Below are positions 12,101 to 14,454 of a DNA stretch of 64,000 bases, piece by piece. A program made the position numbers and the translations under genes. Position 1 is the stretch's first letter. Each line of letters starts with the position of its first letter. The stretch comes from Escherichia coli. GTDB taxonomy: Bacteria; Pseudomonadota; Gammaproteobacteria; Enterobacterales; Enterobacteriaceae. Below the pieces are notes generated by a model, which was not told the DNA's origin, searched no databases, and saw nothing but the letters and a program-made list of their open reading frames with translations. The stretch is taken from NCBI RefSeq assembly GCF_036507355.1, contig NZ_AP027877.1; one strand, 5' to 3'.

Positions 12101-12997
12101 ATGACAGACACACACTATATTGGCCGCTTCGCCCCCTCTCCTTCCGGCGAGCTTCATTTTGGTTCTCTGATTGCTGCGCTTGGCAGCTATTTGCAGGCTC
12201 GCGCCCGGCAAGGTCGCTGGCTGGTACGCATAGAAGATATCGACCCGCCTCGTGAAGTTCCCGGTGCCGCAGAAACTATCCTGCGCCAGCTGGAACATTA
12301 CGGTCTGCACTGGGACGGCGATGTTCTCTGGCAATCGCAACGTCACGATGCCTATCGTGAAGCACTCGCCTGGTTACATGAACAAGGACTAAGTTATTAC
12401 TGCACCTGCACGCGTGCGCGTATTCAAAGCATTGGCGGTATTTACGACGGTCATTGCCGGGTGTTGCATCATGGACCAGACAACGCCGCAGTGCGTATCC
12501 GCCAGCAGCATCCGGTCACGCAATTTACTGACCAGCTGCGCGGCATTATTCACGCCGACGAAAAACTGGCACGGGAAGATTTTATTATTCATCGCCGTGA
12601 TGGTTTGTTTGCCTATAACCTGGCGGTGGTGGTGGATGATCACTTCCAGGGCGTGAGCGAAATTGTCCGCGGGGCAGATTTGATCGAACCGACAGTGCGG
12701 CAAATCTCGCTGTACCAGCTTTTTGGCTGGAAAGTGCCAGATTACATTCATCTGCCGCTGGCGCTTAATCCACAAGGCGCTAAACTTTCCAAGCAGAATC
12801 ATGCGCCTGCGTTGCCGAAAGGTGATCCACGCCCGGTACTAATCGCGGCACTTCAATTTCTGGGGCAGCAGGCAGAAGCACACTGGCAGGATTTCAGCGT
12901 CGAGCAAATCCTTCAGTCAGCCGTCAAAAACTGGCGGCTTACCGCAGTGCCTGAGTCGGCAATTGTAAATTCAACATTCTCAAATGCGTCATGCTGA
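12101..12997 (+). CDS. gluQ: Glutamyl-queuosine tRNA(Asp) synthetase (GluRS paralog)
   Basis: ORF track 12071..12997 (308 aa); ATG 12071 sits in the terminator loop, ATG 12101 ([22 protein letters not shown]) gives 298 aa; class I HIGH-like motif. Confidence 0.85.
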
Positions 12998-13056
12998 GCT
13001 ATGATTAGCCGCTATTTTTTTGTCCTGAATGATGTTTGACACTACCGAGGTGTACT

Positions 13057-14454
13057 ATTTTTACCCGAGTCGCTAATTTTTGCCGCAAGGTGCTAAGCCG
13101 CGAGGAAAGCGAGGCTGAACAGGCAGTCGCCCGTCCACAGGTGACGGTGATCCCGCGTGAGCAGCATGCTATTTCCCGCAAAGATATCAGTGAAAATGCC
13201 CTGAAGGTAATGTACAGGCTCAATAAAGCGGGATACGAAGCCTGGCTGGTTGGCGGCGGCGTGCGCGACCTGTTACTTGGCAAAAAGCCGAAAGACTTTG
13301 ACGTAACCACTAACGCCACGCCTGAGCAGGTGCGCAAACTGTTCCGTAACTGCCGCCTGGTGGGTCGCCGTTTCCGTCTGGCTCATGTGATGTTTGGCCC
13401 GGAGATTATCGAAGTTGCGACCTTCCGTGGACACCACGAAGGTAACGTCAGCGACCGCACGACCTCCCAACGCGGGCAAAACGGCATGTTGCTGCGCGAC
13501 AACATTTTCGGCTCCATCGAAGAAGACGCCCAGCGCCGCGATTTCACTATCAACAGCCTGTATTACAGCGTAGCGGATTTTACCGTCCGTGATTACGTTG
13601 GCGGTATGAAGGATCTGAAGGACGGCGTTATCCGTCTGATTGGTAACCCGGAAACGCGCTACCGTGAAGATCCGGTACGTATGCTGCGCGCAGTACGTTT
13701 TGCCGCCAAATTGGGTATGCGCATCAGCCCGGAAACCGCAGAACCGATCCCTCGCCTCGCTACCCTGCTGAACGATATCCCACCGGCACGCCTGTTTGAA
13801 GAATCGCTTAAACTGCTACAAGCGGGCTACGGTTACGAAACCTATAAGCTGCTGTGTGAATATCATCTGTTCCAGCCGCTGTTCCCGACCATTACCCGCT
13901 ACTTCACGGAAAATGGCGACAGCCCGATGGAGCGGATCATTGAACAGGTGCTGAAGAATACCGATACGCGTATCCATAACGATATGCGCGTGAACCCGGC
14001 GTTCCTGTTTGCCGCCATGTTCTGGTACCCACTGCTGGAGACGGCACAGAAGATCGCCCAGGAAAGCGGCCTGACCTATCACGACGCTTTCGCGCTGGCG
14101 ATGAACGACGTGCTGGACGAAGCCTGCCGTTCACTGGCAATCCCGAAACGTCTGACGACGTTAACCCGCGATATCTGGCAGTTGCAGTTGCGTATGTCCC
14201 GACGTCAGGGTAAACGTGCATGGAAACTGCTGGAGCATCCTAAGTTCCGTGCGGCTTATGACCTGTTGGCCTTGCGAGCTGAAGTTGAACGTAACGCTGA
14301 ACTGCAGCGTCTGGTGAAATGGTGGGGTGAGTTCCAGGTTTCCGCGCCACCAGACCAAAAAGGGATGCTCAACGAGCTGGATGAAGAACCGTCACCGCGT
14401 CGTCGTACTCGTCGTCCACGCAAACGCGCACCACGTCGTGAGGGTACCGCATGA
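13057..14454 (+). CDS. pcnB: Poly(A) polymerase I
   Basis: ORF track 13036..14454; known PAP I N-terminus ([12 protein letters not shown]...) begins at ATT 13057-13059; C-terminal basic tail; stop overlaps folK start (ATGA). Confidence 0.85.

Follow-up and report, generated by a model that had tools for sequence, protein, structure and literature searches.

The AUU start codon of Escherichia coli pcnB and its conserved initiation region

Translation of pcnB, the gene for poly(A) polymerase I (PAP I), almost certainly begins at the AUU codon at positions 13057-13059 of the 64,000-nucleotide stretch of E. coli DNA that we analyzed (the window), where initiation is positioned by an upstream GAGGUG and where the AUU codon together with a poor RBS limits the synthesis of the 465-aa protein. 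The 472-aa model that starts at a TTG codon and the 454-aa model that starts at a GTG codon are gene-caller artefacts. The AUU start of pcnB was already published in 2002 and is already curated, and nothing new is learned here about the start codon itself. What our analysis contributes is the codon layout, the curated annotations, the invariance of the ATT codon, of its Shine-Dalgarno (SD) sequence and of their spacing, the lack of a canonical alternative in most species and the coding signature of the segment between ATT and GTG. The experimental determination of AUU as the start, the limit on expression and the toxicity of PAP I in excess are taken from the literature, in part by way of citing papers.

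The earlier note on this DNA had described AUU initiation of pcnB as established and as keeping poly(A) polymerase levels low. This is borne out by PMC2939334, PMC3561954, PMC9764084, PMC5499595, PMC4245954 and bioRxiv 10.1101/063800, all of which cite Binns & Masters 2002 (Mol Microbiol 44:1287), the study to which the AUU start of pcnB is credited in these citing papers. As related in PMC3561954, Binns & Masters also gave phylogenetic evidence, with AUU starts in many Proteobacteria. The AUU codon and poor RBS are reported to limit PAP I to ~30-50 molecules per cell in exponential growth, and deregulated PAP I polyadenylates mature tRNAs, which is lethal to the cell (PMC3561954); the AUU codon and poor RBS of pcnB are restated in PMC9764084. 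Note that just two E. coli genes, infC and pcnB, are listed as having AUU starts (PMC5499595, PMC4245954, bioRxiv 10.1101/063800). Added IF3 strongly represses AUU-initiated mRNA, an effect demonstrated for infC as well as for AUU mRNAs generally (PMC5499595).

In the published mechanism, which is the best-supported account, the 30S subunit would be positioned by the GAGGUG located 4 nt upstream of AUU, and initiator tRNA would decode the pcnB AUU as formyl-methionine to give the 465-aa PAP I. The non-canonical AUU would be inefficient and discriminated against by IF3, which together with the poor RBS would yield a few tens of PAP I molecules per cell, and this low level of synthesis would shield the cell from tRNA polyadenylation. 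We infer a role of IF3 as the discriminating factor for pcnB specifically from the general behavior of AUU mRNAs (PMC5499595). Because over-made PAP I is toxic, control of its synthesis bears on RNA decay, plasmid copy number and virulence-plasmid maintenance.

Like pcnB, the infC gene that codes for IF3 has an AUU start, which we confirmed in the curated K-12 record, with an SD sequence upstream; IF3 discriminates against the infC AUU, and this codon limits expression (PMC5499595). The two genes differ in that infC has GGAGG with an 8-nt spacer whereas pcnB has GAGGTG with a 4-nt spacer. They also differ in that the product of infC, IF3, is itself the factor that discriminates against the infC start, which makes infC autoregulated, whereas PAP I is a nucleotidyltransferase and no initiation factor; a dependence of pcnB on IF3, if any, would therefore amount to cross-regulation and not autoregulation. 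Thus, pcnB is infC-like in its choice of start codon, and nothing here supports an infC-type autoregulation. A CGAGU pentamer that lies downstream of the start codon and is common to the initiation regions of pcnB and infC was rejected as a shared element, as pentamers of this kind are expected at chance level. A further parallel is provided by ebpA, a pilus gene of Enterococcus faecalis that is unrelated to pcnB and belongs to a different phylum, but which according to PMC4447247 also has an ATT start that attenuates expression and an annotation at a downstream canonical codon.

The window carries the dksA-gluQRS-pcnB-folK cluster of E. coli on its + strand, and the pcnB start region contains the following features:

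[quoted passage not shown]
13057..13059, + strand: ATT (AUU) initiation codon of pcnB, as given by the RefSeq and curated start, by its invariance and by position 1 of the NCBIfam model
13047..13052, + strand: Shine-Dalgarno sequence GAGGTG, complementary to CACCUC at the 16S rRNA 3' end
13053..13056, + strand: spacer of 4 nt between the SD sequence and ATT, fixed in length and variable in sequence
13036..13038, + strand: TTG that opens the longest ORF (472-aa model) in the ORF list, not the functional start
13030..13032, + strand: in-frame TGA that closes the pcnB frame, 27 nt upstream of ATT
13090..13092, + strand: in-frame GTG (Val12), start of the 454-aa model, an internal valine codon
13060..13070, + strand: nt +4 to +14 (TTTACCCGAGT), invariant except for two ACC to ACT changes at +9; part of the initiation region
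13210..13212, + strand: ATG (Met52), start proposed by Liu & Parkinson in 1989 (according to PMC2939334)

The longest pcnB ORF codes for 472 aa (13036..14454) and opens at TTG 13036, the first canonical start after the TGA, just as the earlier note had read from the program-made ORF list. In this frame, which runs TTG ACA CTA CCG AGG TGT ACT ATT TTT ACC CGA GTC, the ATT at 13057 is codon 8, and the GTC is followed by GCT AAT TTT TGC CGC AAG GTG. The coordinates of the earlier note are thus exact, as is its statement of the N-terminal peptide that begins at this ATT. The presence of an ATT codon at one given place is trivial by chance; its behavior across species exceeds chance.

Curated annotation places the start at this ATT. 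A 501-bp query around the pcnB start matched 5,424 of 5,426 complete E. coli genomes at 98.2-100% identity, and in all eight RefSeq E. coli records examined, K-12 included, pcnB starts at ATT. Specifically, K-12 MG1655 pcnB (b0143, PCNB_ECOLI) is annotated as complement(157729..159126) with a first codon that reads ATT; its start region is identical to that of the window from the gluQ stop codon through codon 12, and it lies in the same dksA-gluQRS-pcnB-folK neighborhood, with the strain of the window differing from K-12 by few substitutions elsewhere (hits range over 98.2-100% across the 501 bp). In strain GF3-3, which is 100% identical over the 501-bp query, the RefSeq pcnB start corresponds to window position 13057. 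This record is annotated from ATT and thus does not show the start at an upstream canonical codon that the earlier note had named as able to overturn its reading. Six further RefSeq genomes chosen across the identity range have the same start base, and their TTG, GAGGTG, ATT and GTG are all unchanged.

Protein families agree with these records. The 465-aa product, with the initiator taken as Met, is identical in sequence to the entry listed under UniRef RepID PCNB_ECOLI, and the window's PcnB scores 997 bits against the NCBIfam equivalog NF008634 (PcnB; cut-off 702) and 522.9 bits against TIGR01942 (cut-off 305.65). Residue 8 of the 472-aa ORF, encoded by the ATT codon, is where position 1 of the NF008634 profile aligns. 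The proposal of the earlier note that the PAP I N-terminus lies at ATT 13057-13059 is thus shared by curated K-12, seven other RefSeq records, the 465-aa PCNB_ECOLI and NF008634. The RefSeq pipeline probably now places the pcnB start correctly because NF008634 begins at the ATT residue. Poly(A) polymerase structures PDB 3AQK/L/M/N align residue for residue over query residues 35-449, with all 415 residues of 3AQM chain A aligned one to one with the window's PcnB (E = 8e-285); these constructs lack the first 27 residues of the 465-aa protein, starting at residue 28, and are thus silent on the N-terminus. The gluQRS-pcnB-folK context is also conserved and is present in distant loci. Our literature search found no E. 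coli start-site ribosome profiling that mentions pcnB, with a search for pcnB plus retapamulin returning only a Staphylococcus paper.

Two features upstream of pcnB tie the window to published promoters:

12977..13005, + strand: promoter-like TTCTCA-17-TATGAT, overlapping the end of gluQRS; candidate for pB, the published major promoter
12781..12786, + strand: TAAACT, the -10 element of the published sigma-S promoter pS2; coordinate anchor

PMC2939334 gives the pS2 start sites as -263 to -265 from ATT, with TAAACT as the -10 element. This hexamer occurs once in 12500-13300 and is located 6-8 nt upstream of the predicted pS2 starts if ATT is at 13057. It would be misplaced if the reference were 13036 or 13090, indicating that the ATT of that paper is 13057. 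The same paper places the earlier Liu & Parkinson promoter and ATG downstream of the AUU start. The TTCTCA-17-TATGAT site is the only promoter-like site that our promoter scan found in the region (one site, versus 0.5 expected in shuffles) and probably corresponds to the published promoter pB. The segment that directly follows the gluQRS stop codon (12995-13022, gagctatgattagccgctattttttt), which holds the TATGAT, is conserved across many genera (in many of the loci L002-L081), and a block reading gagctatgattagccgc also recurs upstream of pcnB in many genera. TTGACA at 13036-13041 is a perfect -35 hexamer that was rejected as a promoter: reading of the sequence finds no acceptable -10 element at 16-18 nt, and the promoter scan reported no promoter there.

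The main evidence from conservation comes from pcnB loci that we fetched from 80 species-level Enterobacteriaceae genomes. The codon aligned to 13057 is ATT in 80/80 species, and GAGGTG is present at -10 to -5 in all 80, with a spacer to ATT that varies in sequence (tact, cact, cacc, caac, tccc and others) but is always 4 nt. Upstream of about -20 from ATT the sequence of these species diverges, with indels. We also scanned metagenomes with a codon-degenerate N-terminal pattern in which GAGG was fixed upstream and the next nine bases, start codon included, were left free, which gave at least 120 matches, of which 80 loci were analyzed. ATT is found in all 80 of these loci as well, as is GAGGTG, of which the TG after the imposed GAGG was free in the pattern. 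Twenty-two of the 80 metagenome loci are at 71-84% protein identity and all have ATT; in one member of this group (L115) the SD sequence itself contains an in-frame TAG, at -12. These data agree with, and do not exceed, the published remark on phylogenetic conservation of the start. Judged from sequence, pcnB appears to belong with AUU-started genes, having an AUU where conserved coding begins, an SD sequence at a working distance and downstream codons that look to be translated in frame.

Translation from TTG 13036, giving a 472-aa PAP I, is what the longest-ORF rule and many database entries call for. This codon is canonical and opens the ORF, the 472-aa model is found on at least 1000 contigs and carries NCBI names, and a start codon is present at -21 in 28 of the 80 species (TTG in 26, ATG in two) and in several divergent metagenome loci. 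However, no purine-rich SD-like sequence is seen on reading the 15 nt upstream of this TTG (tttttttgtcctgaatgatgt), the remaining 52 species have a non-start codon or a stop at -21, and 43 of the 80 have no in-frame ATG, GTG or TTG at all between the nearest upstream stop and ATT, with three having TAA at -15. Indels and frame-breaking divergence also occur between -21 and the SD sequence, ATT is the start in the curated records and in the NCBIfam model, and the literature assigns the pcnB start to AUU. Note that the mRNA probably includes TTG 13036 should pB be the site at 12977-13005, and thus the exclusion of this codon rests on context and conservation and not on absence from the transcript. 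Since the E. coli TTG at -21 is unconserved and lacks an SD sequence, there appears to be no usable canonical upstream start, and initiation at TTG 13036 is very improbable and largely refuted already. We consider it extremely improbable that translation begins instead at GTG 13090 to give a 454-aa protein, with the 33 nt from ATT to GTG being an untranslated leader that is conserved as RNA. Ab initio callers do choose this GTG, the 454-aa model occurs on at least 1000 contigs with many ENA/Logan/JGI calls having about the same length, and conservation of nt 1-29 is so high that by itself this segment has no clear coding signature. Nevertheless, the five sites that vary within nt 1-36 are without exception third positions and synonymous in the ATT frame; for third positions alone, the chance probability would be (1/3)^5 or about 0.004. 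Codon 12 is GTC, GTT or GTA in 16 of 94 unique sequences, synonymous variation being free at Arg10, Lys11 and Val12 in this set, and on reading the sequence the sole SD-like bases, AAGG, abut GTG 13090 with no spacer. Furthermore, the N-terminal peptides of distant orthologs diverge by substitutions that keep a pattern of hydrophobic and Arg/Lys residues (ILKRITQLYRSL, IITKVINLYHRLF, MIFGSLGRMFKAV).

An unlikely addition to the AUU start is a shorter PAP I that would be made from ATG 13210 (Met52) on transcripts of the internal sigma-S promoter pS1, supplementing the AUU-initiated protein under special conditions. PMC2939334 describes pS1 as active in vitro and, under special conditions, in vivo, with a putative SD sequence and ATG downstream, and mentions that several studies saw two bands in anti-PAP I westerns; reading of the window also finds GAAGG upstream of this ATG. 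On the other hand, codon 52 is Met in only 23 of 78 species and Leu in the other 55, and the authors of PMC2939334 themselves call a short PAP I isoform unproven, with pS1 needing unusual conditions.

The ATT start region can be followed into more distant orthologs. In L210, a 1.08-Mb genome at 62% identity, pcnB is annotated from ATT and has the same core, and L209 (67%) and L213 (62%) have GAGGTG-N4-ATT in frame but are called from other starts. In L214 (55%) the homologous position is ATT, and L216 (53%) reads ATG ATT TTC; orthologs at 45-48% identity start at ATG or GTG. In L215 (54%) there is no canonical start before the conserved N-terminal motif, leaving ATC or CTG as candidates. This locus (L215 311-400) is preceded by gluQRS, its stretch from the upstream TAG to the motif (IRRVIELCKKVI) is free of ATG, GTG and TTG, and the gene caller has shortened pcnB to an internal ATG. 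From its sequence, L215 suggests that non-canonical pcnB initiation may extend beyond the lineages that use ATT. As a separate observation, pcnB of L209 (601-2098, CP043324.1, from a 5.0-Mb genome) is called as two pieces of 316 aa and 150 aa, which suggests a frameshift or a pseudogene; its upstream ATT-initiation architecture is retained.

Conservation immediately downstream of the AUU codon goes beyond that of the encoded residues. Codons 2-9 of pcnB have a mean third-position entropy of 0.046 bits, versus 0.895 in the other codons of the gene that code for invariant residues, and this is the lowest value of 263 windows; the corresponding codons of folK and gluQRS have 1.27 and 1.20 bits, respectively, in these genomes. 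Among the 94 unique Enterobacterales sequences, which were retrieved with a pattern that allowed any synonymous codon, Phe2 is TTT in 94/94, Thr3 is ACC in 92/94 and Arg4 is the rare CGA in 94/94, as compared to Arg10 where CGC (41), CGT (39), CGA (7) and CGG (7) all occur. This synonymous freeze spans 13060-13083 of the window with a core at 13060-13070. The core GAGGTG-N4-ATTTTTACCCGAGT is kept in L210 even though the encoded residues 6, 9 and 11 have changed.

RNA structure as a cause of the frozen codons found no support in the folding tests. The leader (13012-13120) folds less well than shuffles (z = +1.3), and the consensus fold is a weak 4-bp hairpin (GGUG/UACC) with two invariant arms that was equaled by 11 of 200 column shuffles. 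Comparison with all 48 synonymous versions of codons 2-4 puts the natural version at rank 30 for stability and at rank 9 for SD occlusion, which is unremarkable, and an Rfam search of 12800-13400 at permissive thresholds gave no match. The freeze may instead reflect what the ribosome requires to initiate at a weak start codon, or the site of a regulator. We regard as doubtful the idea that the start codon is only one part of a longer fixed element and that GAGGUG-N4-AUUUUUACCCGAGU, which is invariant across Enterobacterales at synonymous sites too and also in a reduced genome with a diverged N-terminus, constitutes a discrete cis-acting RNA element; such an element could be a protein or small RNA site, or a 30S contact that enables tunable AUU initiation. 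If it were real, this RNA element would add to the published AUU codon and poor RBS a second level of control over PAP I that has not been described.

Several smaller features of the initiation region can be noted alongside the freeze. The SD sequence GAGGTG has a predicted unpaired probability of ~0.30, and its 3' half is predicted to be paired with the upstream ACAC (13039-13042), which is complementary to GUGU at 13050-13053; a CACT block at -17 to -14 recurs in many, but not all, lineages. Pairing of ACAC with the SD sequence could be the physical basis of the 'poor RBS' of the literature. There is also a second patch with almost no synonymous variation at codons 41-44 (CGC AAA GAT ATC, 13177-13188), with third-position entropies of 0.00, 0.00, 0.00 and 0.17. 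This patch lies upstream of ATG 13210 and might coincide with the published internal sigma-S promoter pS1.

The earlier note had also warned that automated callers will mis-start pcnB, which holds for ab initio callers, as seen in the 472-aa and 454-aa models, but not for current RefSeq where 8/8 records are right. At least 1000 contigs carry the 465-aa model that starts at ATT, as is the case for each of these other two. NCBI-named PcnB entries among the 120 closest relatives listed are mostly 464-466 aa, with some of 472, whereas entries that come from ENA/Logan/JGI only are commonly 447-458 aa, with some shorter or at least 478 aa, and none of the latter entries among these 120 has the 465-aa length. 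Note that this homologous-protein search returned close Enterobacteriaceae only and was used for gene-model lengths, with the starts of distant pcnB genes taken from a representative search and contig look-ups. Ab initio pcnB calls of 472, 454 and other lengths are thus still widespread in public databases, which gives the present analysis its value for annotation. For Enterobacterales, pcnB models can be corrected by the rule of finding GAGGTG, four bases, and then ATT TTT ACC.

Additional observations concern gene models in and around pcnB. An in-frame ATG with no obvious SD sequence replaces TTG at -21 in Salmonella enterica subsp. diarizonae and arizonae (L021 and L022, respectively) and likewise in L090, L096 and L107, and a cluster of 472-aa Salmonella enterica PcnB proteins (P0027) has 2,921 members. 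The extended PcnB may exist as a minor isoform or may result from systematic mis-annotation. At the other end of the gene, the pcnB stop codon overlaps the folK start (ATGA, 14451-14454), and there are PcnB-HPPK fusion entries of 584-630 aa (P0035, P0120) that carry PF01288 and are presumably frameshifted assemblies or read-through gene calls. Finally, the start of the upstream gluQRS gene is itself annotated in two ways: curated K-12 gluQ is 927 nt and 308 aa with a start at ATG 12071, whereas PGAP gives 897 nt and 298 aa with a start at ATG 12101 in every other E. coli record examined, with position 12101 being ATG in 67 of 75 species.
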